DNA from: a bacterium
GTDB lineage: Bacteria > UBP6 > JAFGXH01
Direction: 5' to 3'
NCBI GenBank assembly: GCA_027064085.1
Contig: JAMOQH010000126.1
Location: 5,040-69,039, forward strand
Length of the DNA stretch: 64,000 nt
The notes beneath the pieces are model-generated. The model was given only the letters and a program-made list of their open reading frames with translations. It searched no databases and was not told the origin of the DNA. Positions 1,329-54,639 of the stretch are shown piece after piece (positions within the stretch are counted from its first letter, which is position 1; every line of letters begins with the position of its first letter). The position numbers were made by a program, and so were the translations under genes.

Positions 1329-4300
1329 TTAACGAAGTAGGCTCATTAAACCTTGACTTTGTTGATTAGCTTGAGCCAACATAGAAGTAGAAGCCTGAGA
1401 TAAAATCTGAGACTTAGACAACTTAGTTGTTTCTTGTGCAATATTAAGATCTCTGATTCTTGATTCTGCAGCTGTTTGGTTTTCAGATTGAACATCTAAA
1501 TTAGCCATAGTATGTTCAAGCCTATTAACCCATGCACCAATCTTAGCTCTTTCAGATGAAATTTTTTCTATCGCTTTATCAACTTGAGTTATAGCACTTT
1601 TTGCTTCATCAGCATCAGTTACTTGAACTTTGTCAATTTTTAGTGAGTGAGCATCAGATTGCATTATATTAACATTTAGAGTTTGACCTTGGTTTGCACC
1701 AATTTGAAAATCAGTTGAATTATTAACAATTTTCATCGTTTCTATTTTAGAACCATATTCACTTTTAAATACGAAATTTTTAGCTTTTGTATCATAAGAA
1801 GCTTGTAAGTCATAAGATTGGTCAACCTCTATTTCAACACCATCAACAATATTATGTATAATGTTATCACTAACGGTATCTGTTCCTACAACAGTACCAG
1901 ATAAACTATCTTTTACTGTTACATCTAGTTCATTTTCTGTAGCATTTTGAGTTTCAGATAATCCTAATGCAGTTTTTAATTGCTCACTACCTGATACAAA
2001 AATTCTACCATTTGCTCCAGATACTGCAGACCTAATAACGATAGAACCTTGTTGTGATTCTATAGAACCTGCTGTTGATTCTGTTACAAAACTAACAATA
2101 TTTTGGTCTAGTGCACTACTGCCTGTAGAAATGCCAAGTCCTCCATCCTCAACACCACTAGTAATTGCATTTCTTAATTTATCTACAACATCATTTAATG
2201 AATCTCCACCATCAATATAAACATCAGCTTTGTCACCATAAGCATTATATATTGAAAAAGTTTCTCCATTTTCGCCTAAAATAAATTGTCCATCTGCATT
2301 ATAAAATCTATCTATATCCTTAAGTGTTGTTGATGCCTGAACATCTCCTCCACCATTTTCTGTTGCTGTAAATGAAGCAGAACCATCAGTTGGTAAAGTA
2401 CCTGTATCATTTAATGAAAACTTTGCATCAACAGAGCCTAAACTAACATGACCATTTTCTTGATCCATATAAGCAACGCCTAAAGTAGTCATTTTCTCAT
2501 CTAAAGCACCATTATTGTGAGAGGTAACAACACCCATTTGATATTCACCTGATTTTGGGTCAAAAGCATCAATTCTTGTTAAATCCCCCTCTGTATTATG
2601 ATACCTTCTTGTAACAGTTGTATCAGCTGTTGTAATATTTCCGCCCACTTCTGAATGAGTCATAGTAAAATCATCACTTAAAGCAGAAAAATCTAATTGA
2701 TGATTTGTACTATCATAAACAACAGAAACAGCATTAGATAATTTGGTTCCGTCTGAACCAACAACTGAATTGAATTTTGTTATAAAATCTGTTGCAATCT
2801 CAGCTTCTGTTTTAGTTGCTGCATCTAAATCCACATCAAAATTGAATATTTCTCCAGCTACATCAATCTGCATAGAGATATTGCTATCTGCACCACTATC
2901 GGTAATATCAAGACTGTAATTATTGTAAACAATTCCACCTGCACTAGGATCAGCATTAGCATTATCATTCATTGCAATTAGAATTCTATCTCCTGCTTGG
3001 AAATTACCTGGAATACCATCATTAGTGAAAGCATTATTAAAATCCAAAGAATAATAACCATCAGTTGCGGTTTTGTCACTACCACTTCCATCCCAAATAT
3101 CCTCAACATAAGTCCAGCTATTTCCACCATCAAAACTAACCTTTGCATCAAGGCCTGCATCTCCAATACTACCATCTGTTGTAAATTCAACTAAAGCTGT
3201 TGTTCCATGGTGTGAGTTTGAAGAAGTTGTAAATGCTGCATCAGCTGTACTTCCAAGTTTTCCCATTCCAGTTACGAATTGTGCATCCCATATATCATCT
3301 GTATTAGTCATACCAAAAACAGTATCATTAGCTGCATCAACACCATCAACTTGAACTTTATAATCCAATGCTTTGTTTTCATTTATTGCATAAAATTTAA
3401 GCTCTAAACCGTCTGCTTCTGCTCTAATACTTTCATTTAGCCTATTATCTGCATTAAATGAATCTGCAAGAGCAGTAACTCCAGCTGCTGTCACTGCGGC
3501 AACACTACCAGTAAAGGTAATGGTATTATTTGGGTCTCCATCAAGATTAAAATCTAAACTAACTGCTCCAGTATTAGCAATAGTTAAATCTAAATCTAAT
3601 TTTGCTTCAGTAAAACCTGTTGAACCAGCTTTTAAACTACTTCCCATAATATGATAAATATCATCTTGATATGTTGTTGTAACATCCTGACCGCTAACCG
3701 TTTCAAGTCTATCGAGTATCATAGACCCATCACCTTTCTCATCAACAATTAAGTTATAGTTTGAATCTGAAGTTGGGGATGTTGTAAGATTATTAAGATT
3801 AGTAAACTCTGCAACTCCTGATTTAGAAGTACGATGTTGTACATCAAAAGTACCTTTTTGGTCAGCATTAAGATTTGTAATATTACCAGTGTTACCACCA
3901 GTTGCAGTTTCATCAATTTCTAATGTAAAATCTTTTGATGAATCTTTCATTGTAAAAATTGCTGTTTCTCCACTAATTGTTAAAGTCATTTTACTAGATA
4001 AACCTGCATCGGCACCAGCCCCACCTGCTGCTAAAAAAGCAGTTTGTAAATTACTCATTGAAGTGGTTAAGTCATCCTCATCAGCAACAGAATTAACTAG
4101 ATAATTTACTCCATCAACTTTAAAATCTAAATTAAGAGTTGTTGTATCTCCATTACCACCTGCTCCTAAATTTAAGCTTAATTTATGTTCAGCTGCAGAA
4201 GCATTTAAATCTTTACTTTCTACAGATTGAACACCATCTTTAACTCTAAAAATAGAAGATGCTTGAACTTGGTTTGTTCCTGCTTTGGCATTAATTTCTA

Positions 4301-4814
4301 GTTGGTATTCTCCATCAGAAACCTTACCGTCAGTAAAAACTGCACTCATTTTAGATGTAGAAAAAGATGCAAATCCTGTTGCGTCACCTGTTAATAATTT
4401 TTTGGTATTAAATTCTGTTCTTGTTGAAATACCATCAACTTCATCCTTTAAAGCATCAACTTCTTTTTGAACTTCTATTCTATCATTAGAAGTAAGTGTA
4501 CCATTAGAAGCTTGAACAGCTAATTCTCTCATTCTTTGAAGAATTGAATGTGTTTCGTTTAATGCACCTTCAGCTGTTTGAAGCATTGAAATACCATTCT
4601 GAGCATTTTCATTAGCTTTATTAAGACCTCTTATTTGAGTTCTCATTTTTTCACTAATTGCTAAACCTGAAGCATCATCACTAGCTTGATTAATTCTTAA
4701 ACCAGTTGATAATCTTTTAATTGAAGATGTTTGTGCTTTTGTTGCACCTTGTAAATTTGTTTTAGCAGTTAAAGCTGCCATATTGTTTAAAACTGATAAC
4801 ATAATTTCCTCCAT
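1329..4814 (-). CDS. Giant flagellin paralogue 1 (1161 aa): canonical flagellin N-terminal D0/D1 and C-terminal D1/D0 flanking a ~800-aa central insert
   Basis: N-terminus has LSTGLRINQASDDASGLAISEKMRTQIRGL...ILQRMRELAVQA...TEFNTKKLLTG. C-terminus has IGAWVNRLEHTMANL...ESRIRDLNIAQETTKLSKSQILSQASTSMLAQANQQSQGLMSLLR. GGAGG Shine-Dalgarno 7 nt before the ATG. Confidence 0.85.
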   Translation of the reverse strand: MEEIMLSVLNNMAALTAKTNLQGATKAQTSSIKRLSTGLRINQASDDASGLAISEKMRTQIRGLNKANENAQNGISMLQTAEGALNETHSILQRMRELAVQASNGTLTSNDRIEVQKEVDALKDEVDGISTRTEFNTKKLLTGDATGFASFSTSKMSAVFTDGKVSDGEYQLEINAKAGTNQVQASSIFRVKDGVQSVESKDLNASAAEHKLSLNLGAGGNGDTTTLNLDFKVDGVNYLVNSVADEDDLTTSMSNLQTAFLAAGGAGADAGLSSKMTLTISGETAIFTMKDSSKDFTLEIDETATGGNTGNITNLNADQKGTFDVQHRTSKSGVAEFTNLNNLTTSPTSDSNYNLIVDEKGDGSMILDRLETVSGQDVTTTYQDDIYHIMGSSLKAGSTGFTEAKLDLDLTIANTGAVSLDFNLDGDPNNTITFTGSVAAVTAAGVTALADSFNADNRLNESIRAEADGLELKFYAINENKALDYKVQVDGVDAANDTVFGMTNTDDIWDAQFVTGMGKLGSTADAAFTTSSNSHHGTTALVEFTTDGSIGDAGLDAKVSFDGGNSWTYVEDIWDGSGSDKTATDGYYSLDFNNAFTNDGIPGNFQAGDRILIAMNDNANADPSAGGIVYNNYSLDITDSGADSNISMQIDVAGEIFNFDVDLDAATKTEAEIATDFITKFNSVVGSDGTKLSNAVSVVYDSTNHQLDFSALSDDFTMTHSEVGGNITTADTTVTRRYHNTEGDLTRIDAFDPKSGEYQMGVVTSHNNGALDEKMTTLGVAYMDQENGHVSLGSVDAKFSLNDTGTLPTDGSASFTATENGGGDVQASTTLKDIDRFYNADGQFILGENGETFSIYNAYGDKADVYIDGGDSLNDVVDKLRNAITSGVEDGGLGISTGSSALDQNIVSFVTESTAGSIESQQGSIVIRSAVSGANGRIFVSGSEQLKTALGLSETQNATENELDVTVKDSLSGTVVGTDTVSDNIIHNIVDGVEIEVDQSYDLQASYDTKAKNFVFKSEYGSKIETMKIVNNSTDFQIGANQGQTLNVNIMQSDAHSLKIDKVQVTDADEAKSAITQVDKAIEKISSERAKIGAWVNRLEHTMANLDVQSENQTAAESRIRDLNIAQETTKLSKSQILSQASTSMLAQANQQSQGLMSLLR

Positions 4815-4997
4815 GAAATCATTATTAATAAAATAGCCAAATCCTTTTGACTCTGCTTATTGTAATTAAAATCTAGTTTTTAGATTCTCATTACACATAA
4901 TAAACTAAATAGTTTCATAAGTTCTCCTAAATTAATAATTAATAAAATTAAATATACTCTTGTTTCCTCCTTATATCACTTCTTATAATTTTTTATT

Positions 4998-7900
4998 TTA
5001 TCTCAATAAAGCCATAAGTCCTTGTGCTTGTTGGTTAGCTTGAGCAAGCATAGAAGTTGATGATTGAGCCAATATTTGAGACTTAGATAATTTAGTTGTC
5101 TCTTGTGCAATATTTAAATCTCTAATTCTTGATTCTGCTGCTGTTTGATTTTCTTCTTGTGCTCCAAGGTTATTGATTGTATGTTCTAATCTATTAACCC
5201 AGGCACCTATTTTTGCTCTAGCTGAAGAAACTTTAATAATGGCATTATCAACTTGAGTAATTGCTTCTTTTGCTTCATCTTGATCTGTAACTTGTACTCT
5301 ATCTACTTTAAGAGCATGAGCATCAGCTTGCATAATATTTGTATTTAGTGTTTGGCCTTGATTGGCACCAATTTGAAAGTCTGTTGAATTATCAACAACT
5401 CTCATTGTTTCTATATGTCTTCCTAAGTCACTTTCAAATACGAAAGATTTACTAGATTCATCAAAAGTTGCTTTAATATCATAATTTTGGTCTATTTCAA
5501 TATCAACACCTTTAACTATATTGTGCAGTATGTTATCACTTGTAACATCTCTTCCTACAAATTCACCGGTTAATGCATCATTAACAGTAATTTCTAATTC
5601 GTTTTCTTCTGCTTTATCTACATTAGAAATTCCTAGAGCTGTTTTTAATGCTTCACTTCCAGAAATAAATAATCTACCATTTGCTCCACTTTTAGGAGAA
5701 CGAATAACAATTGAGCCTTGTTGAGATTCTGTAGAATTTGGAATAGATTCTTTAACAAAACTAACTATATTTTCATCTAATTCAGAATTGCCGGTACTCA
5801 TTCCTAGTCCACCATCTACAACATCATTTGTAATTACATCTTTTAATTTATTTACTACATCTCTTAATGAATCACCTCCATCAATATAAACATCAGACTT
5901 ATCTCCATAAGCGTTGTATATAGAAAATGTTTCTCCATTTTGTCCAAGTATAAATTGTCCATCTGCATTATAAAATCTATCAATATCTCTTAGTTTTGTA
6001 GCTGCCTGGACATCTCCTCCGCCATTTTTATTAGCAGTAAAGCTAACTGTACCATCTGTTGGCAAAGTACCTGTTTCAGCTAAAGAAAATTTAGCATCAA
6101 CAGAACCTAAACTTGCTTGTCCACTAGTTTCATCAAAATAAGATACTTTTAAAGTTGTATTACTGTCATCAAGACTATTATTAGGATGGCTTGTTACTAC
6201 TCCCATTTCAAATTGTCCTGTTGTTGGATCAAATGCATCAACTCTTGTTAAATCACCATCTGTAGCTTGAAATCTTTTTGTAACAGAGCCATCTGCTGTT
6301 GTTATATTTCCACCTGTTTCAGAATGTGTCATAGTAAAATCGTCTTTTAAGGCAGTAAAGTTCATTTTATGTGTTCCTGAATCATAAGAAATACTCATAA
6401 CATCAGATAATTTTGTTCCATTACTACCAATTTGTGAATTAAAGTTAGAAATTAAATCACTTGCCATTTGGGCTTCTGTTTTGCTTGCTCCTTCTAGGTT
6501 TGTATTAAAATTGAATACTTCTCCTGCTACATCAATTTTTAATGATAAATTACTATCTGTAGCACTATCTGTAATATCTAAGCTTGTAGTATTATATGTT
6601 GTTGTATCTGGTATAGTATTTGCATTATCATTCATTGCTATCATAACTCTATCACCTGCTTTAAAACTACCAAGTAGCCCGTCATTTGTAAAGGCATTAT
6701 TGAAATCTAATGAATAATAACCATCTGTTGCTGTCTTATCTGTACCACTTCCATCCCAAATATTTTCTACATAAGTCCAACTACTTCCACCATCAAAGCT
6801 TACTTTTGCATCAAGTCCAGCACTACCAATGCTTCCATCTGTTGCAAATTCAATCAATGCACTAGTTCCACTATGGGAATTTGAATTTGCAGTAAATGCG
6901 GTATCCGCTGTAGCTCCCAATTTTCCTAAACCTGTTACAAATTGTGCATCATCAACTTCTCCTGCTGCAATTTGAGTAAAAAGAGCTGCATTTGCTCCAT
7001 CATCTCCAACCATTTGCATTTTATAATCAAGAGCTTTGTGTTGATCAAGAGCATAAAATTTAACTTCTCCTGTCGTTGTACTAGCCTCTGCTTTAATAAA
7101 CTGATTTAATCTATTATCTGCATTTATTGCATTTGCTAAAGTTACTGCATCAGTATTAGCATCAGCACCACCAAGAGCAACCTGAAAGTTAACTATATTA
7201 CTAGGGTTGCCATCTAAACTAAAGTTAATTTCAGCATTTCCAGCTCCACCAGCACCAGATAATGTCATAGGATAATCTAAATAAGCTTCTCTTAAACCTG
7301 TTGATCCTGCTTGTAGAGTAGTACCAATAATGTGATATATATCATCATCATAAGTTACACCACCATTTGCATCTTGGCCACTTACTGTTTCTAGGTTATC
7401 TAAAACCATACTTCCGTCACCCTTTTCATCAACTACAACTTTATAAGAGGCATCACTAGTAGGGCTATCAATTAAATTGTTTAAATTGGTAAATTCAGAT
7501 ATACCGTTTGCAGAACTTCTGTGAGTAACATTAAATAAGCCTTCTTCTCCAACAGCAAGGTTGTTACCCGCACCTGTTTCGTCAACTTTAAAAGTAAAGT
7601 CAACATTAGCATCTTTTGCTGTAAAAAGAACAGTATTGCCGTTAATAGTTAAATTCATTTTACTTGATAAACCTGCATCGGCTCCAGCTCCACCTGCTGC
7701 AAAAAATGCTGTTTGTAAATTACTTTGAGTTGTTGCTAAGTCAGTACCATCTATATTAGATGTAAAGCCATAGTCAACTCCATCTATTTTTATATTATAA
7801 TTACCTGTTGTAGTATTTGCTCCGTCAAGAGTAAAACTCATTTTATGTCGAGCTGGAGATGCGTTTAAGTCCTGAGATTCAACAGATTGAACTCCATCTT

Positions 7901-8474
7901 TAACTCTAAACATTGAAGTAGTTTGAACTTCTCCCTTTCCTGCAATAGCATTAACCTCTAATTGATATTCACCGTCTTTAACATGAGGTCCATAAAAATT
8001 AGCTTTCATTTGGCTTGTAGAAAAAGATGCAAATCCTGTTGCATCACCGGTTAGTAATTTTTTTGTATTAAATTCCGTTCTAGTTGAAATACCATCAATT
8101 TCATCTTTTAAAGCATCAACTTCTTTCTGAACTTCTATTCTATCATTTGAAGTAAGAGTACCATTAGAAGCTTGCACTGCCAATTCTCTCATTCTTTGTA
8201 ATATTGATTGAGTTTCGTTTAATGCACCTTCAGCGGTTTGAAGCATTGATATACCATTCTGAGAGTTTTCACTAGCTTTTTTAAGCCCTCTTATTTGAGT
8301 TCTCATTTTTTCACTAATTGCTAAACCACTAGCATCATCACTAGCATGGTTAATCCTCAGCCCTGTTGAAAGTCTTTGTATTGATTTGGTTTGTGCATTC
8401 GTTGCACCTTGTAAATTTGTTCTAGCCGTTAATGCAGCTAGATTTGTGTTGAATGATAACATAATTTCCTCCAT
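4998..8474 (-). CDS. Giant flagellin paralogue 2 (1158 aa), tandem to paralogue 1
   Basis: Same conserved N/C flagellin domains. The 20-nt leader and start (atttcatggaggaaattatg) are identical to paralogue 1. The terminal ~500 nt at each gene end are ~85-90% identical to paralogue 1 by eye, while the central region is diverged. Confidence 0.85.
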   Translation of the reverse strand: MEEIMLSFNTNLAALTARTNLQGATNAQTKSIQRLSTGLRINHASDDASGLAISEKMRTQIRGLKKASENSQNGISMLQTAEGALNETQSILQRMRELAVQASNGTLTSNDRIEVQKEVDALKDEIDGISTRTEFNTKKLLTGDATGFASFSTSQMKANFYGPHVKDGEYQLEVNAIAGKGEVQTTSMFRVKDGVQSVESQDLNASPARHKMSFTLDGANTTTGNYNIKIDGVDYGFTSNIDGTDLATTQSNLQTAFFAAGGAGADAGLSSKMNLTINGNTVLFTAKDANVDFTFKVDETGAGNNLAVGEEGLFNVTHRSSANGISEFTNLNNLIDSPTSDASYKVVVDEKGDGSMVLDNLETVSGQDANGGVTYDDDIYHIIGTTLQAGSTGLREAYLDYPMTLSGAGGAGNAEINFSLDGNPSNIVNFQVALGGADANTDAVTLANAINADNRLNQFIKAEASTTTGEVKFYALDQHKALDYKMQMVGDDGANAALFTQIAAGEVDDAQFVTGLGKLGATADTAFTANSNSHSGTSALIEFATDGSIGSAGLDAKVSFDGGSSWTYVENIWDGSGTDKTATDGYYSLDFNNAFTNDGLLGSFKAGDRVMIAMNDNANTIPDTTTYNTTSLDITDSATDSNLSLKIDVAGEVFNFNTNLEGASKTEAQMASDLISNFNSQIGSNGTKLSDVMSISYDSGTHKMNFTALKDDFTMTHSETGGNITTADGSVTKRFQATDGDLTRVDAFDPTTGQFEMGVVTSHPNNSLDDSNTTLKVSYFDETSGQASLGSVDAKFSLAETGTLPTDGTVSFTANKNGGGDVQAATKLRDIDRFYNADGQFILGQNGETFSIYNAYGDKSDVYIDGGDSLRDVVNKLKDVITNDVVDGGLGMSTGNSELDENIVSFVKESIPNSTESQQGSIVIRSPKSGANGRLFISGSEALKTALGISNVDKAEENELEITVNDALTGEFVGRDVTSDNILHNIVKGVDIEIDQNYDIKATFDESSKSFVFESDLGRHIETMRVVDNSTDFQIGANQGQTLNTNIMQADAHALKVDRVQVTDQDEAKEAITQVDNAIIKVSSARAKIGAWVNRLEHTINNLGAQEENQTAAESRIRDLNIAQETTKLSKSQILAQSSTSMLAQANQQAQGLMALLR

Positions 8475-8532
8475 GAAATATTTGTGAAACCGAGTCCGTT
8501 CGGTTTAGGAGAATCCTTTCTCCATATTTTGC

Positions 8533-8559
8533 TTATCGACCATTGTTTTTAAAACTAAA
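8533..8559 (-). promoter_or_regulatory. Sigma28 (FliA)-type promoter for flagellin paralogue 2
   Basis: The minus strand reads TTTAGTTT-N11-GTCGATAA, versus the consensus TAAAGTTT-N11-GCCGATAA (6/8 and 7/8 matches, correct spacing). It lies ~60 nt upstream of the ATG at 8474. Confidence 0.5.
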
Positions 8560-8592: not shown

Positions 8593-8629
8593 TTGTGTAG
8601 AGACAAGGCAATGCCTTGTCTCTACACAA
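8593..8629. promoter_or_regulatory. Perfect 37-bp palindrome (18+1+18): ttgtgtagagacaaggca-a-tgccttgtctctacacaa
   Basis: Arms 8593-8610 and 8612-8629 are exact reverse complements. It sits in the divergent flagellin-2/flgI intergenic region just beyond a run of phased T8/T8/T7/T6 tracts. Confidence 0.6.
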
Positions 8630-8732: not shown

Positions 8733-9821
8733 ATGTTGAAATATATTTTAATAATGATTATTTTTAGTTCTATTGCTTTTGGTTCAAGAATAAAAGATAT
8801 TTCTTATGTTAAAGGAGTTAGAAATAATAGTTTAATTGGTTATGGAATTATTGTCGGCCTTGATGGTACAGGTGATGATGATAAAGCTAAATTTACGATT
8901 AAATCTTTAGTAAATATGCTTGAAAAAATGGGAGTAAAATTTGATTCGAGGTCTTTAAAGGTAAAAAATGTAGCAGCTGTTATGGTAACTGCTAAGTTAC
9001 CACCATTTTCAAGAGTTGGTAATAAAATAGATATTGAAGTGTCATCAATTGGTAATGCCAAGTCATTAAGGGGTGGAGTTTTGATTATGACACCATTAAA
9101 AGGAGCTGATGGTAAAGTTTATGCTATTGCTCAAGGTAATCTGTCTGTTAATGGTTATTCTGTTAAAAGTGGGAAAACAAAATCTAAGGCAGTTAAAAAT
9201 CATTTAACTGTAGGCAGAATTCCTAATGGGGGTACTATAGAGAGAGAGTTAAAAAATTCTATTTTAAATAAATCATATTTAGATTTAATTTTAAAAAATC
9301 CAGATTTTACAACTGCATATAGATTAAAAAAAACAATTAATGAACAATTTGGTGAAAATTTGGCAAAAGCAATAGATAGTAATACCATAAGGGTAGTTCT
9401 TCCTGTTAGTTTAAAGGAAAATCCTATAAAATTTATTGCAATAGTTGAAAATTTAGATGTAAAAGTTGATACTCCTGCGAAAATTGTAATAAATGAAAGA
9501 ACTGGTACAATTATTATAGGTAAAAATGTAACAATTTCTTCTGTAGCTATTTCACATGGTAATTTAAATATTATTGTTGAAGAAAATGAAACCCTTAGTC
9601 AGCCTTCGGCTCTTAGTTTTGGAACAACTGCTAAAACTAAATCAACTAAAATAAAAGTAAAGGAAGATAATGCTGATTTTAGTTTATTACAAGATAAAGT
9701 TACTTTAGAAGATTTAGTTAAAGCTTTAAACTCTCTTGGTGTTTCAACTAGAGATATGATTTCTATTATTCAAGCCATAAAAGCTAGTGGAGCATTACAG
9801 GCTGAGTTGGAGATTATATGA
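8733..9821 (+). CDS. flgI: Flagellar P-ring protein FlgI
   Basis: Signal peptide, then [30 protein letters not shown]. Full-length similarity to the FlgI family, 362 aa. Confidence 0.85.
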   Translation: [362 protein letters not shown]

Positions 9822-10552
9822 TAAGTAAGAATATGTTGACAGAGCTTATTGGTAAGGATAAGACGATGTCCTATTCTACTACGAAGGCAACAGTTCATTC
9901 AGAGATAGGAAAACATAAGTCTTCTGCTAAAGATGAAAAAATTAAAAAAGTAGCAAAAGATTTTGAATCTTTATTAATAGGTGAAATATTTAAAGTAATG
10001 AGGAAATCTATTCATAAAACAGAACTAACTAAAGGTGGGTTTGGTGAAGATATATTTGAGTCTATGCTTGATGGAGAAATGTCTAAAAATTTAGCACAAA
10101 GAGATATGCTTGGTATATCAAAAATGCTTGAAAAGGAATTGCTTGGAAAAGCAAATAATACTATTCAAAAAAGTAGAAATTCAATATTACCAGCAATAGG
10201 TAGAATAACTTCTAAATTTGGAATGAGAGAGCATCCTATTACACATAAATTAAGCCATCATGATGGTGTTGATATCGCCTTAAAGGAAGGTACTCCAATA
10301 AAAGCTAGTTTAGGTGGCAAAGTTGTATTCTCTGGTAAACAAAATGGATATGGAAATGTTATTATTGTTAAAAATGGTGAATATGAAATGGTTTATGCTC
10401 ATTGTTCAAAATTATTGTTTAATAAGGGAGATAATGTAAAAAAAGGAGAAAAAATAGCTCTTTCTGGAAATACAGGTCGTTCAACAGGCCCTCATTTACA
10501 CTTTGAAGTAAGGCATAAAGGTAAAGCTATAGATCCATTTTCTCTATTTTAA
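9818..10552 (+). CDS. flgJ: FlgJ-like protein: N-terminal rod-binding domain fused to a C-terminal M23 (LytM) peptidase domain
   Basis: AKDFESLLIGEIFKVMRKS matches the FlgJ rod-binding motif. C-terminus has HHDGVDIA...GNTGRSTGPHLHFEV (M23 zinc-peptidase signature). The start ATGA overlaps the flgI stop. Confidence 0.7.
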   Translation: MISKNMLTELIGKDKTMSYSTTKATVHSEIGKHKSSAKDEKIKKVAKDFESLLIGEIFKVMRKSIHKTELTKGGFGEDIFESMLDGEMSKNLAQRDMLGISKMLEKELLGKANNTIQKSRNSILPAIGRITSKFGMREHPITHKLSHHDGVDIALKEGTPIKASLGGKVVFSGKQNGYGNVIIVKNGEYEMVYAHCSKLLFNKGDNVKKGEKIALSGNTGRSTGPHLHFEVRHKGKAIDPFSLF

Positions 10553-14336: not shown

Positions 14337-17300
14337 TTAATAAACTCGGTTTCTATATGCTTCAATAAAGTTTATTATTTTGGTGTTATTAGATTCTAAA
14401 GCATAGGTAAAAGCATTTTTACCTTTTTTATCTTTTATATTTGGATTTGCTTTGTTTCTTAGTAGTGTTTTGACTGCATCTACATTTTGAATTTTTATTG
14501 CTGAAATTAATGGAGTCGAGCCGTCGGTTAATTGATTATTTATATCTAGTTTTAATGTTATTGTAAAATCTAAAATCCAAGGATTTTTTGAAAAGACAGC
14601 TAGATTAATTGAATTTGAGTTCATACTATTTTTTTGACTAATATTACAATGCTTTTTTACCAGTAATTTTAATATTTTTAAATTATTACCATAAGATGCT
14701 TCAAGAAAAGCAGAGCTATTGGTTTGGGTTGTTAAATTTAAATCAGCTTTATTTTCAATGAGAAACTTAGCTATTTTAAAGTAATTATTATATATTGCAA
14801 TCATTAGAGGAGTGTAACCTATTTTAGTTTGTAAATTAATTGTTTTAGTTGTTGTTAATAATTTTACAATGTTAAAATATCCATTAAATGAAGCAATATA
14901 TAAAGGAGATTCCCCTTGGCTATTAGAAATTGTAATATCTGCACCCGCTTTAATTAGTTTTCTAACAAAATCTTCTCTTCCAAAATAAGTGGATAGAGCT
15001 AATGCTGTATAACCCATAATATTTTTACTGTTTAATATCGTTTTGTTTCTTATAAATATATTGAAATACTTATTATTATTTGTATAAATTGTTTGTAGTA
15101 AAGGTGTGATACCATTTTTATTAACGATATTAGTATCTGCACCTTTTTTAATAAGATAATCTATAATTTTATTGGATTTTGTTGTAAATGAATACAGTAA
15201 TGGACTACCTAAATTAAAATCTTTTTTATTTATATTAGCTCCTTTATTTAATAAAAACTTTACAAAGTCTAATTTTGTATTGTTGCTTAGAGCTGCAATT
15301 AAAGGTGTTATTCCTGTTGTTAAATCTTGGTCGTTAACATTGGCACCTAAGTTTATTAACTTTTTAGCTATATCCCATTGTCCATCATATATAGCAAGTA
15401 CTAAAATAGGGGTTCCATTATTACTTCTTATAGAAAAATCTACTTTGTAATCTAATAAATAATCTATAATGTTCCAATATTTATTAGTTAGAGCTGTTAG
15501 TAGTGGAGAGTATCTATATTTATCTAGTATTTTAGGAGATGCCCCATGTTTGATTAAAGCTTTTATTGCATCTATGTTATTCATTGTAATCGCTTTTAAT
15601 AGATAAGTCATTCCATTTGATAATTTTCTATTTAAGTCTTCTTTACCATTTTTTAGATATAAATTTAATATTTTATTATTATTATACGAAAGAGCAATAT
15701 AAATTGGGGTTTCATTATTTAAGTCTAGTCCATTAAACATAAAATCCTTTTTTATAAAAAAATTTATGAAATCTATGTTTCCTATTTCTGTGAGCCATGA
15801 ATATATTTGTACTTCATATTTTTTATCATCTGGGTTTATCTCTTTATTATATATAATTTTTAAAAGATCTTTTTTGTTAATATCTTCTATCCTTTTAGAA
15901 ACTTTATTTTCTACTATCACTTTAAATAATTCAAAATTACCTTTCCTTAGAGGAATTTGTGTAGTTGTGATATTATTAACATTATAACTATCTAATATTG
16001 CTCCATTTTTAATTAACCATTTAACCATTTTTGAGTTATTTTTTAATAATGCCAACATTACTGCAGAGGTATTTAAATTATTTGCTTCATTAATATCAAT
16101 GCCTTTCTTAAGTAAATATTTAGCAAATTCAATATTTCCTTTCATTGCAGTTAAATTTAGTAGTGTGTTACCATCCATGTCTTTTTCTGAAACATTTGCT
16201 CCATTATCAATTAATAATTTAGCTATTTCCCACTCTCTATTTTTTATTGCAATAAGTATTGGTTTAATTTTATCTTTTCCTACTTTATCAGGTGAAACTC
16301 CGTTTTTTAATAAAACTTTAACTATTTTGGGGTTATAGCTTTTTATTGCTTGAGTTAAGTAGGTTTCATGTTCGTTATTGATTAAGTTTAAATTAATTCT
16401 ATTTGAAGATATTAGCTCTAAAGCAGATTGTATACTGTTATAAGAAATTGCATGGGATAATGCGGTATTTCCACTTTTATCTTTTAAATTTAAATTTGCA
16501 TTGTTTTCAATAAAAAATTTTACGATATTATAATTATTTTTAGATGCAGCAATCATTAATGCTGTTTTATTATTGAATTTCTTATCAATAAAAATACCAT
16601 GGTTTATTAGATATTTTACAATATCTAGATTTCCTCCTTCAGAGGCATAAGTTAAAATATCTATGTCTAAATCTTTTGAATCTCTAAAAATTGCACCTTT
16701 TTTTATCAGTAATTTAAATATATCATAGTTTCCATATTTTGCAGCAATATGTAATGGAGTTTCTTTTAATTTATTTTTTAAATAAAAATTATATGATTTG
16801 TTTTTCAATAAGTAAGAAACGAGTTCTGTATTTCCACTTCCTATCGCGTACACTAAGCATGAATTACCATTTTTATCTAAGTTGTATAAATCAAGATTTA
16901 ATGACTCTAAATATCTAAATATATTTATTTTACCTGATATTGAGGCCATAAAAAGAGCATTTTGAAGTTTAGTATTTTTTACAAAAATATTTGCCTTATG
17001 TTTTATTAATAATTTTAGTGTTTCTAGATTAGAATAATATGATGCAAGCAAAAATGGAGTATTTCCTTGATTATCAATTGCTTCTAAATTTTTATCATAT
17101 TCTAATACTTTTTCTATAATTTTTATATTTGAACCTTTTACTGCAAAGTGCAAAAGAGTATTATTATCTTTATCTCTTAAGTATGGGTTTGCCCCTTTTT
17201 TTAACAATACTTCAAAACTGTTATAATCTCCACTTTCAGCGGCTTTCATTAGTAATGTTTGTTGATTTATATCAAGGTGATTTACATTATTTTTATTTAT

Positions 17301-17435
17301 GCTTTCTAGATTTTTATAATAGGAGCTTTTTAATATATTATTTCTATATTTAGAGCTTTTTAAGTTGTGGTTTCCACAGCTTAAAAAGAAAATTAACATA
17401 GAAAATAAAACAACTAATCTCTTTTTTAATTTCAT
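14337..17435 (-). CDS. Giant ankyrin-repeat lipoprotein (1032 aa, ~28 ANK repeats)
   Basis: Lipobox LSCGN after the signal peptide. Reiterated TPLH/TALM...G...VK.LL..GA.N motifs throughout. Confidence 0.85.
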   Translation of the reverse strand: MKLKKRLVVLFSMLIFFLSCGNHNLKSSKYRNNILKSSYYKNLESINKNNVNHLDINQQTLLMKAAESGDYNSFEVLLKKGANPYLRDKDNNTLLHFAVKGSNIKIIEKVLEYDKNLEAIDNQGNTPFLLASYYSNLETLKLLIKHKANIFVKNTKLQNALFMASISGKINIFRYLESLNLDLYNLDKNGNSCLVYAIGSGNTELVSYLLKNKSYNFYLKNKLKETPLHIAAKYGNYDIFKLLIKKGAIFRDSKDLDIDILTYASEGGNLDIVKYLINHGIFIDKKFNNKTALMIAASKNNYNIVKFFIENNANLNLKDKSGNTALSHAISYNSIQSALELISSNRINLNLINNEHETYLTQAIKSYNPKIVKVLLKNGVSPDKVGKDKIKPILIAIKNREWEIAKLLIDNGANVSEKDMDGNTLLNLTAMKGNIEFAKYLLKKGIDINEANNLNTSAVMLALLKNNSKMVKWLIKNGAILDSYNVNNITTTQIPLRKGNFELFKVIVENKVSKRIEDINKKDLLKIIYNKEINPDDKKYEVQIYSWLTEIGNIDFINFFIKKDFMFNGLDLNNETPIYIALSYNNNKILNLYLKNGKEDLNRKLSNGMTYLLKAITMNNIDAIKALIKHGASPKILDKYRYSPLLTALTNKYWNIIDYLLDYKVDFSIRSNNGTPILVLAIYDGQWDIAKKLINLGANVNDQDLTTGITPLIAALSNNTKLDFVKFLLNKGANINKKDFNLGSPLLYSFTTKSNKIIDYLIKKGADTNIVNKNGITPLLQTIYTNNNKYFNIFIRNKTILNSKNIMGYTALALSTYFGREDFVRKLIKAGADITISNSQGESPLYIASFNGYFNIVKLLTTTKTINLQTKIGYTPLMIAIYNNYFKIAKFLIENKADLNLTTQTNSSAFLEASYGNNLKILKLLVKKHCNISQKNSMNSNSINLAVFSKNPWILDFTITLKLDINNQLTDGSTPLISAIKIQNVDAVKTLLRNKANPNIKDKKGKNAFTYALESNNTKIINFIEAYRNRVY

Positions 17436-25518: not shown

Positions 25519-25806
25519 ATGGCAAGAGTAACTGTAGAAGACTGCCTAGTGAAAATACCAAATAGATTTGCATTAGTAATTCTTGCAACACAAAGAACAA
25601 GAATGTTGCTTAGAGGAGCTGATCCAAAAATTGAAAGTGATAATAAATTTCCTGTTATTGCTCTTAGAGAAATCGCAGCAGGTTATGTAAGATTTACAAG
25701 AGATGTAGAAGAAGAATTAAAAGAAACATTTGATGAATTTAAAATCTCTTATTACTACCCAAAAGAAAAGAATACCGATGAAGTTTCAGGATTAACTCTT
25801 ATTTAG
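25519..25806 (+). CDS. rpoZ: DNA-directed RNA polymerase omega subunit
   Basis: [30 protein letters not shown]. Preceded by a GGAGGG Shine-Dalgarno. The track ORF start at 25381 adds 46 low-complexity residues and is probably not the real start. Confidence 0.75.
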
Positions 25807-26758
25807 TATTTTCTATTTTTATTTTTAAATAATTTGCAATTTCAGTATTATTTTCGTCTATAGCAATTTCAAAACTATTTTTTCCATTATTATTTTCTTG
25901 TGTAATATCAGCACCAGATTCAACAAGTACTTTTACTATTTCAAGGTTTTTGCTCATTACTGCACTCATTAAAGCGGTCCAGTTGAAGTTCGTTTTAGTG
26001 TTTACATTTGCTCCATAACCTAGAATAAGCATTACTGCATCGAGTTTTCCTGATTTAGCAGCACTCATTAATGTAGTCCAACCATCTCTATTTTGGGAGT
26101 TCATTTTTATACCTATAGAGTCTAAAAATGTCATCATTTCAATATTTCCTTTTTCTGAAGCAATTATCATTAAATTTGATTTGTTTTTATTTTTTCTCCA
26201 AAATTTAGGCATTTTAGTTTTAATATATTTAAGTATCTCTAAATTACCTCCTAACACAGCAAATTGAATTATTGTATAACCTTCATATAATCCTTCTTCT
26301 ATTTTAAATTTGATATGAACTTTATAGGTTTCTATTAATTTTTTGAAATTTTTATAATCCCCATTTTCTGTAACTATTGAAATTAAATTTCTACCATTAA
26401 AGTTAAATTTATTAAGTTTTGCTTTATTTTTTAATAATTCATTAAAAACTTTATATCTTTTATTTAAATAAGCAATTATTATTGGTGTATTATCTAAAGA
26501 ATCAGGTTCATTAATATCATTTATTTTATTTTTTATTAACCATATAGAAATATCATCGTAACCTTTTCTTATGGAATATATTAAAAAACTATCTGTTTTA
26601 TTTATTTTTTTATTTAACTTATAACCTTTTTGGTGAAATTCTTTTAAATCTTGTAAACGCCCTCTTTCTATTGCTTCAAGAGGTGTTTTAGCTTTACAAG
26701 ATGATAATATAATTAATAATATTATTAAAAATATATATAAGATTCTTTTAATTTTCAT
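25799..26758 (-). CDS. Ankyrin-repeat lipoprotein (319 aa)
   Basis: Lipobox ILSSCKA followed by 6-7 ANK repeats. Confidence 0.75.
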
Positions 26759-33419: not shown

Positions 33420-36410
33420 TTATCTTAATAAGCTCATTAAACCTTGAGCTTGCTGATTTGCTTGAGCCAGCATCGCTGTTGATGTTTGAGAAAGAATTTG
33501 TGATTTTGATAATTGAGTTGTTTCTCTTGCAACATCTAAATCTCTAATTGCTGATTCTGCGGCCGTAGTATTTTCTCTTTGGGCAGCTAAATTAGCCATA
33601 GTATATTCTAATCTATTTGCATAAGCTCCAATTCTTGCTCTTTCTGATGAAACCATATCAATAGCTTCATCAAGAGTTCTTATGGATTCTTGAGCTGGTT
33701 CAGGATCTGTTAATAACACCCTTGTTATTCCTAATGCTTGTGCATCCATTTGAGAAATAAATGCATTCATCATTTGCCCTTCGTTTGCTCCAATTTGAAA
33801 ATCCATAGAGTTATCTACTATGTTAATTGTTTCAGTTGATGTTTCATCTGTTGAAGTAAAATCAAAAGCTCTAGTTGCAGTATTCCAATTAACATTTAAG
33901 TTATAATTTGCATCAAATTCTATATCAATTCCATCTATAACACCTTGAAGCCTATTGTCACTAACGGTATCTTGCCCTACAAATTCGCCTGTAATTGCAT
34001 CTCTAACTGTAATGTCCATTTCATTGTTTTTTGCCTCTTGAATAGTAGAAACTCCTAGTGCATTTAATAAGTCTTCATTTGCTGCTAAATATAATCTACC
34101 ATCTTTATCTGTTTTAGGAGATCTAATAACAATAGAGCCTTGCTGATTTTCAAAAGTACCACTTGTTGGAGTATCTATATAATCGGCAACATGCTTATCT
34201 ACAACTACATCACCTGAAGACATTCCCAATCCTCCATCACTTTTATCACCAATTATCGCATTCTCTATTTTCTCAGATAAAACATCTAGTGTGTCTAAAC
34301 CATCGATTAGCACTGTTGAGCTATCTCCAACTCCATTATATACTGTAAGATATTGACCATGATCTCCAAGTATAAAATTTCCATCTGGGTCATAAAATCT
34401 ATCTAAATCAATTAATCTACTATGGCCACTACTATCACCACCGCCATTCATTACATTAAATGTTACTATACCATCACTTACAGGAACACCGGTAACAGAT
34501 TCATTAAAGCTTGTTGCCATAGTTCCAAATTCTATATGTCCTGTTTCTGTATTAATCCAACCTGCTTGTAATTCTGTTGATGCATTGTCTAAGGTGTTAT
34601 CAATATGACTAAATACTGCACCTTGCTGAGGTAAATTATTTGAAGGGTCAAATGCATCTACTCTTGTTAAATCCCTATTGGGAGTATTGTCATTATCATT
34701 AAGGGCAATCAGCATTCTATCTCCAATTTGATAGTTAGCTCCATTACCATTATTTGTAAAAGCTCTATTAAACTCTAATGTCTGTATTCCATCAGTTACA
34801 AGAGTATCAGTTGCTCCATTCCAAATATCATCAGCACTGTACCATGTATCTCCCTGATTAAATGACACTCTTGCATCTAGGCCAGCTGCCCCTAAGCTTC
34901 CATCTGATGTAAATTCAATAATCGCATAACCACCAGTTGCAGAATTACTATTAGTTGTGAATGCATCTGCTGCAGTAGTACCTAAATTACCTAAATTATT
35001 CGTAAATGCATGAAGTCCCTGATCTGCTACTTCAACTGTTGGATCCGCTCCTACAGTTAATGAATAATTGTTGCTTTGACTTGGGTCATCAACAGTAATT
35101 GTTACATTACCCGCACCATCATCATGGGCAGTAATATATTGATTTAAGTCTGTATTTGCATTAATTGCGTCTGCAATTTCAGTTCCATTACCTGCAACTG
35201 TACCTGTTGTTGTGTTTATTACAACAGGAATATCATCTCCACCTAAATTAAATGTTAAATTTACAGCTCCATTAACTGCTGTTGCTGTAATGTCTCCAGA
35301 CATTTGTGAGCTATTTAAACCATTTGAACCATCTTGTAAATATTGTCCAACCATTCCATATATATCATTGGCACCAACTTGTAAGTTTCCATCTGCTCCT
35401 TCGTCAATATTTATTTTATAGTTTGTTGTAGTTGATGGAATTAAACCAACAGTGTTTGAAACACCTGAGATACCCGCTTGAGATTCATTACCTCCTGAGA
35501 AAATATGTATTCCTTGGTCTAATGGGTCAACTCCAGAGCCACTAATCGTAGCTTGAAATCCATTGCCGGCAACACCAGTTTCTCTTGATGTGATTAAAAC
35601 ATCTCCTGTTGGAGTATAATTCGCAATAATACTATCATTTAATCTAGTATCATTATTTATTTGATCAACAATTTCTTGTGCATTATCTAAAATGGTTGCA
35701 CCAGTTGTTGTATAGTTAAAATCTATATCACCATTTCCAAAGTTAAAAATAACATCTACATTTCCTGCAATTGCTGTTGGAGTAATATTTCCTTGCATTG
35801 CTGCTTGTTGTCCAAATAGTGTTATGTCTCTAACGCCTTTGACACCATCTTTAATTCTAAAAACAGATGTTTGTAATACTTGAGGAACGCCTGGGTCTGC
35901 ATGTATTTCTAAGCTATAGGAACCGTCATCAACTTGACCTCTTACAAAAGCATTGATATCTCCTGTTGAAGCAGACCATAATGCACTTGATTCACCAGTT
36001 AAAAGTCTTTTTGTATTAAATTCAGTTCTTTTTGCTGTAGCATCGATTTCTTTAATAAGGGATTCAACTTCATGTTGAACTTCAAGTCTATCATCTGAAG
36101 TTAATGTACCATTAGATGCTTGAATTGCTAATTCTCTCATTCTATGTAGCATTCCATGAACTTCATTTAGAGCTCCTTCTGCTGTTTGAATAAGTGAAGT
36201 TGCTGATTGAGCGTTTTCTTCAGCTCTTGATAAACCTCTTATTTGTGTTCTCATTCTTTCAGATATTGATAAGCCTGATGGATCATCTGCTGCCGAGTTA
36301 ATTCTTAGACCACTTGAAAGTCTTGAGATGGACTTTGTAACCATACTGTTTGCAGTATTTAAGTCATTTTGAGCTGATAAAGCAGCTAAGTTATTATTAA
36401 TTGATAACAT
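33420..36410 (-). CDS. Giant flagellin paralogue 3 (996 aa)
   Basis: N-terminus has LSSGLRINSAADDPSGLSISERMRTQIRGL...TEFNTKRLLTG. C-terminus has RIGAYANRLEYTMANL...LSKSQILSQTSTAMLAQANQQAQGLMSLLR. The central region shares blocks with paralogues 1 and 2. Confidence 0.85.
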   Translation of the reverse strand: MLSINNNLAALSAQNDLNTANSMVTKSISRLSSGLRINSAADDPSGLSISERMRTQIRGLSRAEENAQSATSLIQTAEGALNEVHGMLHRMRELAIQASNGTLTSDDRLEVQHEVESLIKEIDATAKRTEFNTKRLLTGESSALWSASTGDINAFVRGQVDDGSYSLEIHADPGVPQVLQTSVFRIKDGVKGVRDITLFGQQAAMQGNITPTAIAGNVDVIFNFGNGDIDFNYTTTGATILDNAQEIVDQINNDTRLNDSIIANYTPTGDVLITSRETGVAGNGFQATISGSGVDPLDQGIHIFSGGNESQAGISGVSNTVGLIPSTTTNYKINIDEGADGNLQVGANDIYGMVGQYLQDGSNGLNSSQMSGDITATAVNGAVNLTFNLGGDDIPVVINTTTGTVAGNGTEIADAINANTDLNQYITAHDDGAGNVTITVDDPSQSNNYSLTVGADPTVEVADQGLHAFTNNLGNLGTTAADAFTTNSNSATGGYAIIEFTSDGSLGAAGLDARVSFNQGDTWYSADDIWNGATDTLVTDGIQTLEFNRAFTNNGNGANYQIGDRMLIALNDNDNTPNRDLTRVDAFDPSNNLPQQGAVFSHIDNTLDNASTELQAGWINTETGHIEFGTMATSFNESVTGVPVSDGIVTFNVMNGGGDSSGHSRLIDLDRFYDPDGNFILGDHGQYLTVYNGVGDSSTVLIDGLDTLDVLSEKIENAIIGDKSDGGLGMSSGDVVVDKHVADYIDTPTSGTFENQQGSIVIRSPKTDKDGRLYLAANEDLLNALGVSTIQEAKNNEMDITVRDAITGEFVGQDTVSDNRLQGVIDGIDIEFDANYNLNVNWNTATRAFDFTSTDETSTETINIVDNSMDFQIGANEGQMMNAFISQMDAQALGITRVLLTDPEPAQESIRTLDEAIDMVSSERARIGAYANRLEYTMANLAAQRENTTAAESAIRDLDVARETTQLSKSQILSQTSTAMLAQANQQAQGLMSLLR

Positions 36411-36680
36411 GGTAACCTCCCTGTACTAGCTTAATATTGAACCCTCTAAGCTAAAAAAATTATTGCTTTTAGTGGTCTTTCATTCGCTGACAATTTAAAC
36501 ATCGTCAACAAGGTGAAATACTAAAATTTTTTATCCTCTTTTCCTAAAGCAATGAACTTTCCTAAAATATTATTAATTTTAAAATTTAGTAAATACAGTA
36601 GGTTAGCTTTTGTTATTTAAGGTGAATTAAAATTTAATAGTTGTCAATATATTGTCATTATTTTGTAAGTGGCAAGTTTT

Positions 36681-38715: not shown

Positions 38716-40107
38716 TTAAATTATGATTTCTTCTAAGAATAGTAGGGGCTTTGTGTAAATTGTCTGCCCGAATTTTTTATTTGTTGTTGAATATGTTAAA
38801 AATAAATTTTCTTTTGCTCTTGTAATTCCAACATAAAAAAGCCTTCTTTCTTCTTCAATATTAGTATCTTTTCTTAAAAATATTTCTTCTCCCAAATAAG
38901 GAAGAAAAACAGTATTAAATTCTAGTCCTTTTGCACTATGATATGTAATAACTCTAATTCCATTTCCTCTATTATCAAGCTCTAGTTCTATTTTTTCCTC
39001 ATCGCTTAAAGATGTGGTAAACTCTATGTTATTATTTTGTAAGTATGGTATTAATTTTTTAATTTGCGAGTTATATCTCAATAAAATGGCGATAGAGTTG
39101 GAGTTTTTACCCATATTTATAAAAGATTTTAATTTTTCTATAATAAAATAATTTTCTTGATCTTGCTCTAAAAATACTTTTTTCTCTATTATCCCTATAT
39201 CTAAATTTGTATTATCAAGTGTTTTTTTATATCTAAATTTATTGTTTTTTATTAAAGAATTAGCTATTTTTACGATTTTTTTACTTGAACGATAGTTTAT
39301 TAATAATTTTGTTACTTTTGTGCCTTTAAACTGTTCCTCAAAGCGTAATATATTTTCAATTTTAGCATCTCTAAAACCATATATAGATTGGTCATCATCG
39401 CCAACGGCAAAAAGGTTTATTTTATTGTTTAATTTTATAATTTCTTGTATTAAGTTTAGCTGTAGAAGTGATGTATCTTGGTATTCGTCTATTAATATAT
39501 GGGAAAATTTATTTTTAAAAACTTCTCTGAATTTTTTATTGTTTTTTATGTTTTTTATTAAAACTAAGAGCATATTTTCATAATCAATCCTTTTTTGCTT
39601 AATTAATGCTGCTTCATATAATTCATAAGCTTTTTTTAAGAAAACTTCCATAGTATTATTTTTATTGACAACGAGTTCAGTATAAAATAAGCCATTTCTT
39701 TTTAGCTTTTCAATTTGAGCCATAAATGGGTCAATATAAGAACTTTTCAATTGTAATCTCTTAATACTCTCTTCAAAAAACTCTCTTTTTTCTTCTCCTT
39801 GTAAAATTATTGGAGAATAATTAAGCAAATTATATTCATTTATTAGTTTTAATGAAAAAGAGTGAAATGTACCAATATATTTTAAATAAACTCCTATCTT
39901 TTCTATTCTTTCTTCCATTTCAAGTGCTGCTTTATTTGAAAATGTTAATAATGCAATTTTTTTAGGCTCAATTGAGTTTTCTATTGTTAATTTCAATATT
40001 CTATTAATAATAACAGTGGTTTTTCCTGTACCTGCTCCTGCAATTACTAAATTAAATTGACTTTTTGAATTAACTGCTTTTTCTTGTTTTTTATTTAAGT
40101 TTATCAT
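38716..40107 (-). CDS. Short (463 aa) UvrD/PcrA-like superfamily-1 helicase
   Basis: Walker A is AGAGTGKTTVIINRIL. DExx region is ILIDEYQDT. C-terminal motif VGITRAKENLFL. Much shorter than canonical UvrD. Confidence 0.55.
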   Translation of the reverse strand: MINLNKKQEKAVNSKSQFNLVIAGAGTGKTTVIINRILKLTIENSIEPKKIALLTFSNKAALEMEERIEKIGVYLKYIGTFHSFSLKLINEYNLLNYSPIILQGEEKREFFEESIKRLQLKSSYIDPFMAQIEKLKRNGLFYTELVVNKNNTMEVFLKKAYELYEAALIKQKRIDYENMLLVLIKNIKNNKKFREVFKNKFSHILIDEYQDTSLLQLNLIQEIIKLNNKINLFAVGDDDQSIYGFRDAKIENILRFEEQFKGTKVTKLLINYRSSKKIVKIANSLIKNNKFRYKKTLDNTNLDIGIIEKKVFLEQDQENYFIIEKLKSFINMGKNSNSIAILLRYNSQIKKLIPYLQNNNIEFTTSLSDEEKIELELDNRGNGIRVITYHSAKGLEFNTVFLPYLGEEIFLRKDTNIEEERRLFYVGITRAKENLFLTYSTTNKKFGQTIYTKPLLFLEEIII

Positions 40108-54586: not shown

Positions 54587-54615
54587 TTGACTTTAATAAC
54601 AAATCACAATATACT
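54587..54615 (+). promoter_or_regulatory. Sigma70-type promoter (TTGACT-N17-TATACT) for the giant surface protein
   Basis: -35 at 54587-54592, a 17-nt spacer, -10 at 54610-54615. AGGTG Shine-Dalgarno at 54629-54633. ATG at 54640. Confidence 0.45.
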
Positions 54616-54639
54616 TTTATTATCTTTTTAGGTGTTGTT

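Follow-up and report, generated by a model that had tools for sequence, protein, structure and literature searches.

The 64-kb window analyzed here (the whole stretch of DNA under study, from contig JAMOQH010000126.1 of GenBank assembly GCA_027064085.1, an uncultured, flagellated, low-GC bacterium of the GTDB lineage UBP6) contains two adjacent, co-oriented genes on the minus strand that encode giant flagellins: f2 (4998-8462, 1154 aa), the upstream member of the tandem pair, and f1 (1329-4802, 1157 aa), the downstream member, with the same architecture. We consider it likely that the pair derives from an old tandem duplication of a Geovibrio-type giant flagellin gene, and that its copies persist as two stable isoforms whose ends are held by purifying selection together with local gene conversion at the 5' end. 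This account builds on features observed directly, namely the homology and architecture of the proteins, the divergence profile of the genes, the age of the duplication, the footprints of conversion and the conservation of the leader. As a mechanism, the D0/D1 helices at both termini would build the filament core, which an acidic, beta-rich, multi-domain outer region would coat, and the extra length of the proteins (~1155 aa compared with ~800 aa) comes from three copies of an alpha/beta module of ~100 aa placed at three sites of the scaffold. Short conversion tracts between the tandem copies would occasionally have homogenized codons ~31-150 but not the 3' end, and graded divergence of the central region would yield two stable isoforms with different surfaces, which, judged from their sequences, may either co-assemble or be used alternatively. 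In the leader, the ribosome-binding site would be held in a small hairpin, with GGA-loop hairpins upstream of it and, in the case of f2, a sigma-28-like promoter.

Divergence and selection along the flagellin pair

Both genes had been read as flagellins in an earlier note on this DNA, and profile searches agree: full-length matches to Pfam Flagellin_N (E = 1.2e-39 for f1, 1.7e-41 for f2) and Flagellin_C (E = 1.7e-22 and 2e-21) were obtained, as they were for a third paralogue, f3 (E = 3.7e-39 and 4.7e-23), and NCBIfam also calls f1 and f2 flagellins. A Pfam scan of the central ~900 residues of f1 and f2 matched no further family. In a codon-aware alignment the two genes are 73% identical at the nucleotide and 70% at the amino acid level. 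Called from the first ATG, the open reading frames span 1329-4814 and 4998-8474 and form direct repeats at a measured spacing of 3660-3669 nt, in agreement with the ~3.6 kb proposed before.

The earlier note described near-identical gene ends, each ~500 nt long and 85-90% identical, flanking a diverged core. This description fits the 5' end, where identity is 84.2% over the first 500 nt and 70.2% over the middle 2.45 kb (p = 2e-10, chi-square), and where the example singled out for its likeness, 4441-4814 against 8101-8474, aligns gap-free at 86.1% identity. It does not fit the last 500 nt, whose 73.8% identity is statistically indistinguishable from that of the core (p = 0.12). Nor is near-identity an apt term, the longest exact run shared by the two genes being 41 nt, followed by one of 32 nt within the core and another of 27 nt. 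The core is indeed more diverged at 70.2% nucleotide identity, but it is collinear, with only seven indels of 1-6 codons each (19 codons in total). Its divergence is uneven: the best 500-nt core windows reach up to 77% nucleotide identity, 40-codon windows span 56% to 87%, and two islands, aa 553-593 and aa 833-873 (84-87% nucleotide and 93-95% amino acid identity in 40-codon windows), match the 5' end. Uniform divergence along the gene, which had been named as the pattern contradicting conserved ends, was not seen; the 5' end and the core islands are conserved, and the 3' end is about as diverged as the core.

Over the whole gene, the proportion of synonymous differences (pS) between f1 and f2 is 0.53 (dS about 0.94, Nei-Gojobori), with synonymous sites near saturation over most of its length. 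The proportion of nonsynonymous differences (pN) is low at both termini (0.02-0.07 in D0/D1-N, 0.05-0.14 in D0/D1-C), with pS of 0.36-0.67 across them; codons ~31-150 show a pS of about 0.34-0.39 and a pN of 0.02-0.07, and the 3' end a pS of 0.60-0.68 and a pN of 0.12-0.16. This combination of low pN and high pS bears out the suggestion that filament-packing constraint keeps the ends alike. Because pS at the 3' end (0.67) is saturated, conservation of the C-terminal segment is attributed to purifying selection alone, and the ends are conserved mainly by purifying selection on the helices of the filament core. Between orthologues in related genomes, f1 and f2 are each constrained (pN 0.02-0.14).

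Conserved ends around a variable middle are here the textbook flagellin pattern. Divergence in the middle is graded under relaxed purifying selection, being highest in the inserted modules (M1 to M3, described below), intermediate in the scaffold and lowest in D0/D1, with fractional amino acid identities between f1 and f2 of 0.90 (D0/D1-N), 0.83 (D0/D1-C), 0.71 (scaffold), 0.58 (M1), 0.48 (M2) and 0.61 (M3). Antigenic or diversifying selection on the core, which had been raised as a consequence of the repeat geometry, is not indicated, since none of the sliding windows has a dN/dS above 1 (maximum about 0.6).

Age of the duplication and local gene conversion

Three orthologous loci bear on the history of the pair. 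L001 (JGI 3300026544) holds the full orthologous pair, f2'-f1'; L005 (GCA_054075425.1) holds f2' together with 107 codons from the start of f1'; and L004 represents the window's own population, differing from the window by 3 single-nucleotide polymorphisms in 18 kb and showing no rearrangement. Nucleotide identity within the core is 80-90% between orthologues, compared with 55-80% between paralogues. Quartet site patterns between the window and L001 over the whole gene comprise 398 sites supporting orthology, 59 supporting concerted evolution and 54 of the cross type, which measures noise. From the orthologous pairs in L001 and L005 and from these site counts it follows that the duplication is older than the split of these genomes. 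In a concerted pair of the flaA/flaB type, paralogues are more alike than orthologues along the gene, and this is not what was found.

Concerted patterns are concentrated in one short segment. Between the window and L001, orthology and concerted sites number 10 each over nt 151-450, next to 2 cross sites, and the ratio of concerted to orthology sites differs from that elsewhere in the gene (Fisher p = 4e-5). The first 321 nt contain 17 orthology, 19 concerted and no cross sites between the window and L005 (binomial p = 4e-6), and 19, 19 and 0 between L001 and L005. In the alignment, codons 1-28 are paralogue-specific and genome-specific shared states begin at about nt 90. Over aa 31-107, the paralogues of L005 have a pS of 0.15 compared with 0.52-0.64 for orthologues, and the pair in the window has a pS of 0.39, close to what orthologues show (0.33-0.45). 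Gene conversion has therefore acted, but on the D1-N segment only, roughly nt 90-450 (codons ~31-150). Its footprint in L005 is clear and recent, whereas that in the genome of the window is old or weak. The proposal that concerted evolution keeps the gene ends alike therefore holds for 5' codons ~31-150 but not for the 3' end, which has a pS of 0.67 and no sign of conversion.

Several points weigh against the account given at the outset. The pair is known in two related metagenomic genomes only, one of them with just 107 codons of f1, and near-saturation of synonymous sites, among the paralogues as among the available genomes, makes dS and dN/dS by Nei-Gojobori approximate, as well as the dating of events. 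When the f1-f2 pair of the window was put to a Sawyer-type run test, no significant tract emerged (p about 0.1). Codon or mRNA constraint rather than conversion could explain part of the low 5' pS, since pS between orthologues is also slightly low there (0.37-0.43 compared with 0.44-0.55). As to the inserted modules, a search of their fold against the PDB returned nothing at E <= 0.001, phage sheath decoration domains being the best match (E = 0.012). Finally, as to expression, tblastn found neither csrA nor fliW in the 64-kb window, a sigma-70 scan recognized no promoter for f1, and no terminator was found in the f2-f1 spacer.

Taken further, the run test and the lowered orthologue pS at aa 31-150 (0.38-0.48 compared with 0.44-0.54 elsewhere) would suit an explanation in which low 5' synonymous divergence reflects selection on codon usage or mRNA structure in a very highly expressed gene, and not conversion at all. 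We give this only a slight chance of being correct. Against it, constraint cannot make genome-specific shared derived states, and concerted sites outnumber cross sites by 19 to 0 (window and L005), 19 to 0 (L001 and L005) and 10 to 2 (window and L001, nt 151-450); moreover, the pS of 0.15 within the L005 pair and of 0.52-0.64 between orthologues concern the same codons.

The tandem direct repeats at 3660-3669 nt, the 5' 500 nt that are significantly more alike than the core, and the conversion footprints at codons ~31-150 could also belong to an actively recombining system, in which ongoing concerted evolution keeps the ends alike and drives core conversion, copy-number change or antigenic variation. 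The model for such a system is flaA/flaB of Campylobacter jejuni, a tandem pair that is ~95% identical and undergoes intragenomic recombination and concerted evolution, according to PMC5126078, which cites Meinersmann & Hiett 2000, Wassenaar 1995 and Harrington 1997. The window's pair shares with flaA/flaB the arrangement of tandem, co-oriented paralogues, some intragenomic conversion and, seemingly, the use of different sigma factors among the flagellins of one genome. It differs in that f1 and f2 are 73% identical overall at the nucleotide level, compared with about 95% in flaA/flaB, in that conversion is confined to ~300-350 nt of 5' D1, and in that the two genes are stably orthologous across genomes. 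The 3' end, 74% identical and with a saturated pS of 0.67, the longest identical run of 41 nt, and concerted sites that are at the level of noise outside nt 151-450 likewise argue against active recombination, as do the absence of any window with dN/dS above 1, the two same-population assemblies that differ by 3 polymorphisms in 18 kb without rearrangement, and the pair itself, which three genomes keep whole and in orthologous form. Active recombination is already largely refuted in the core and at the 3' end, and as an explanation of the whole pair we hold it to be very unlikely. Copy-number change, which had been suggested as an outcome of the repeat geometry, found no support: three diverged genomes all retain this f2-f1 pair unbroken, with no collapsed or hybrid alleles seen, and there is consequently no sign of it.

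Searches for further examples were of limited yield. A metagenome scan returned no tandem pairs beyond those already found, a scan of genome contigs with f1 returned no close relatives, and an alignment of the core region used as query returned only distant ones, in two metagenome-assembled genomes.

Outer-region architecture and the third paralogue

The f1 protein consists of D0/D1-N (aa 1-142), an outer region (aa 143-1042) and D0/D1-C (aa 1043-1157). In an AlphaFold2 model based on 119 sequences (mean predicted local distance difference test score, pLDDT, 81.7), terminal helices occupy residues 3-137 and 1064-1156. By far the best PDB match of this model is 9au6, the filament of Geovibrio thiophilus (Foldseek E = 1e-47, TMt 0.69), which is also matched by phmmer (E = 2.5e-107), with f1 764-1156 aligned to residues 396-792 of the chain in addition to a weaker N-terminal stretch. 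Homology to 9AU6 therefore extends beyond D0/D1 into the outer domains by both methods, at a sequence identity of only 23% over the structural alignment. The G. thiophilus flagellin (9AU6, outer-domain cluster #41, Sonani et al. 2024) has four beta-rich outer domains and a strongly acidic surface, and its genome encodes three flagellin paralogues, two adjacent and one apart (PMC11532411). The window resembles this system in its two adjacent paralogues and one apart, in outer-domain homology and in an acidic outer region, where the ratio (D+E)/(K+R), a measure of composition and not a surface calculation, is 2.7 in f1, 2.3 in f2 and 3.9 in f3, compared with 1.0-1.3 in D0/D1. Unlike the G. thiophilus proteins, those of the window are ~360 aa longer (1154-1157 compared with 793-801 aa) and carry three inserted modules. 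Related flagellins were also found in Deferribacteres and Chrysiogenetes, both of which are among the giant-flagellin lineages (PMC6248924).

Relative to the ~800-aa relatives, the inserts in f1 are M1 (aa 199-325), M2 (aa 412-520) and M3 (aa 653-758). None has a counterpart in the proteins of G. thiophilus, Calditerrivibrio, Deferribacter and Chrysiogenes, and the domain complement of f1 is accordingly not that of the ~800-aa proteins (D2-D5). M1, M2 and M3 are copies of one module of ~95 aa (~100 aa) with the order beta-beta-beta-alpha-beta-beta, as judged by pairwise hhalign comparison (M1-M2, 87.7% probability, E = 3e-6; M2-M3, E = 1e-3; M1-M3, E = 0.013). Profile-profile comparison alone recovers the modules, a BLASTP self-comparison having found no internal repeats. 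The module was also considered as a form of Pfam Flagellin_IN, which was rejected, a Pfam scan of eight module copies at E <= 10 giving no such match. A flagellinolysin assignment of the proteins (NF033876) was rejected as well: the NCBIfam scores of 58-63 bits compare with a cutoff of 205, and only the C-terminal part of the profile is matched, by the stretch in which the outer region ends and the C-terminal D1 begins. No enzymatic domain came out of the Pfam and NCBIfam scans. Reading of the translation, which covered f1 only and involved no pattern search, showed no HExxH motif.

The third paralogue, f3 (33420-36410, minus strand, 996 aa), lies 25 kb from the pair and shares their scaffold, in which it carries M1 and M2 but not M3. 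Its D0/D1 is more diverged (65-73% amino acid identity to f1), and its leader differs from that of the pair. With relatives of 895-907 aa that carry M1 only, f3 with M1 and M2, and f1 and f2 with M1, M2 and M3, the modules form a graded series. A further flagellin lineage was observed at L002, L003 and L014 (P0002, P0003), with proteins of 1159-1175 aa that are 75-76% identical to f1, encoded at a different locus, between an RND efflux operon and flaG. As this lineage occurs in the same metagenomes, genomes of the clade may carry four giant flagellin genes.

Giant flagellins of more than 1000 aa are known from Bermanella, Oleibacter and others, in which an outer module was repeatedly duplicated and inserted, making the proteins larger (Thomson et al. 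2018, PMC6248924). With 1157 and 1154 aa, a conserved D0/D1 and a repeated module, f1 and f2 are of this kind, and f3, at 996 aa, falls just under the threshold. In contrast to the giant flagellins of Oceanospirillales, the modules here are dispersed at three sites and not arranged in tandem. The sole link found between the M module and the DE region of the Oceanospirillales proteins is a weak Foldseek match of the module to Pseudomonas aeruginosa FliC (4nx9, E = 0.098).

A more far-reaching interpretation, which we put forward tentatively and would not expect to hold in all of its parts, is that the proteins represent an undescribed outer-domain architecture, in which three dispersed modules were added stepwise to a Geovibrio scaffold, from ~800 aa (no module) through ~900 aa (M1) and 996 aa (M1 and M2) to ~1155 aa (M1 to M3). 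The modules might then form a fast-evolving outermost layer of the filament, the isoforms differing mainly there, for example in relation to adhesion to minerals and other surfaces or to evasion of flagellotropic phages. The same interpretation has conversion confined to D1-N and, though recurrent, stopping sharply at codon ~30, leaving the N-termini paralogue-specific.

Leaders, promoters and genomic setting

An identical 20-nt string (ATTTCATGGAGGAAATTATG) precedes both genes, and the sequence further upstream is unrelated. The two genes had been credited with an identical leader and start; the leader is identical over these 20 nt, but the ATG taken as the start lies within ATGGAGGAAATTATG, inside the GGAGG Shine-Dalgarno sequence. 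Because this first ATG belongs to the Shine-Dalgarno sequence, the true start of each gene is the second ATG (4802 for f1, 8462 for f2). From there the proteins begin with MLSVLNN (f1) and MLSFNTN (f2), as f3 likewise begins with MLSINNN, and f2 matches the database protein P0005 exactly.

Upstream of the start, the shared leader folds, in a single-sequence prediction, into AUUUC-AUGGAG-GAAAU with the Shine-Dalgarno sequence and its GGA in the loop. On the minus strand this hairpin occupies 4803-4822 in f1 (ATTTC-ATGGAG-GAAAT), abutting the true ATG at 4802, and 8463-8482 in f2 (ATTTCATGGAGGAAATT), abutting the ATG at 8462. Further upstream on the same strand, f1 has one GGA-loop hairpin (AGTCAAA-AGGA-TTTGGCT, approximately 4829-4848), three stem pairs of which show compensatory changes across loci, and f2 has two (GGAGAA-AGGA-TTCTCC and AAACCGA-ACGGAC-TCGGTTT, approximately 8483-8525), both kept in L001 and L005; all three are candidate CsrA sites. 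Across 10 leaders, each of which has one or two upstream hairpins with a GGA loop, RNAalifold places both hairpins in the consensus, with compensatory changes at 4 of 11 pairs. The same leader element precedes flagellin genes of L001, L002, L005, L006, L008 and L014. Since it is kept in relatives whose flagellin proteins are 54-76% identical, it is a regulatory or translation signal and not a remnant of conversion.

CsrA-FliW control of flagellin mRNA is established for B. subtilis hag and C. jejuni flaA, with CsrA sites laid out as here (PMC4894983, PMC6529632). By analogy with these leaders, which also present GGA in hairpin loops of the 5' untranslated region, one of them overlapping the Shine-Dalgarno sequence, the leader and its GGA hairpins most likely serve translational control of the CsrA/FliW type, and CsrA would be the protein that binds them. 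Unlike the systems compared, this 64-kb window contains no csrA or fliW; in the relative L006, both are located directly upstream of the flagellin gene.

A putative sigma-28 (FliA)-like promoter of f2, TTTAGTTT-N11-GTCGATAA (8533-8559, minus strand), agrees with the consensus at 13 of 16 positions and has the correct spacing. The pattern occurs five times in the window with 1.5 matches expected by chance, so a match by itself is weak; the same motif is present at the same place in L001, L005, L006 and L008. As no terminator separates f2 from f1, read-through co-transcription of the pair is possible. The f2-f1 spacer also contains a micro-ORF of 12 codons with its own Shine-Dalgarno sequence (MKLFSLLCVMRI, 4880-4918, minus strand), the peptide of which is kept in L001 (MKLLILLCVLRE) and L005 (MKLLVLICVLRE) despite nucleotide changes. 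Upstream of f3 (region 36411-36680), a sigma-54-like GG-N10-GC/TTGC motif (AGGAAAGTTCATTGCT, 36548-36563) was identified that recurs in front of the orthologues at L009 and L010 (TTGGAAAAATGATTGCTT). Because the sigma-54 consensus is matched 209 times in the window compared with 175 expected, which is chance level in AT-rich DNA, the f3 promoter call is taken only from this conservation.

These differences in upstream regions, with a sigma-28-like promoter and two GGA hairpins at f2, one hairpin and the micro-ORF at f1, and a sigma-54-like motif at f3 and its orthologues, together with a gene for a sigma-54 activator response regulator at 40091-41503, might be taken to indicate alternative expression by a switch, either through an invertible promoter as in Salmonella fliC/fljB or through different sigma factors, so that the filament surface is switched instead of isoforms co-assembling. 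An arrangement of the Salmonella hin/fljBA type was looked for, and neither promoter-flanking inverted repeats above chance nor a recombinase among the annotated neighbours was found; the only strong inverted repeat is an 18-nt palindrome at 8593-8629, which does not flank a promoter segment. Possible read-through from f2 into f1 and the chance-level frequency of the sigma-54 consensus also count against a switch, and we regard this explanation as unlikely, preferring stable isoforms that arose by old tandem duplication.

The palindrome is perfect (18+18 nt, TTGTGTAGAGACAAGGCA / TGCCTTGTCTCTACACAA), is located between flgI and the f2 promoter, and has an A-rich run behind it when the minus strand is read. 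It might terminate transcription in both directions or act as an insulator, and it is not kept in L001. In L001, the f2-f1 spacer contains an insert of ~190 nt (6284-6480) in which a strong hairpin (CAGCGTGAAAAC...GTTTTCACGCTG) occurs twice, resembling repetitive extragenic palindromic (REP) elements or miniature inverted-repeat transposable elements (MITEs). Upstream of f2 in L005, about 12 tandem heptamers TCTTGAC are present (~9300-9400).

Divergent from f2, on the plus strand, flgI (P-ring protein) and a flgJ-like gene (Rod-binding and Peptidase_M23 by Pfam) occupy 8733-10552. The gene order in the window is PPDK, flgJ-flgI on the opposite strand, and f2-f1-MFS, and synteny around the pair varies, L001 having f2-f1-MFS-flgI-flgJ in a single orientation and L005 four additional genes, one with a PEGA domain, that separate flgI from f2. 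The GC content of the flagellin genes is 33-35%, compared with 28% for the window. Elsewhere in the window, an open reading frame on the plus strand (54577-63999) is at least 3141 codons long and continues past the window end; given its N-terminal hydrophobic segment, it probably encodes a giant protein that is secreted or located at the surface. Eukaryote-like repeat proteins are also encoded, including a 319-aa protein with confirmed ankyrin repeats (25799-26758, minus strand) and a 784-aa protein with confirmed RCC1 repeats (46126-48480, plus strand), the latter in a stretch with strong positive GC skew (0.41). A 1032-aa open reading frame (14337-17435, minus strand) has a translation that looks ankyrin-like by eye, with no Pfam match listed and no dedicated scan made of it.

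The findings have little significance beyond annotation and make an ordinary addition to the Geovibrio-type and giant flagellins. The tandem pair is best described as an old stable duplication, not as a recombination engine, and it offers an example of gene conversion limited to the part of the gene that encodes D1-N. Only the three-module insertion series is somewhat new, as a clean natural series of stepwise growth into giant flagellins on a scaffold of solved structure, and the proteins could interest groups that catalogue the structures of flagellar outer domains.

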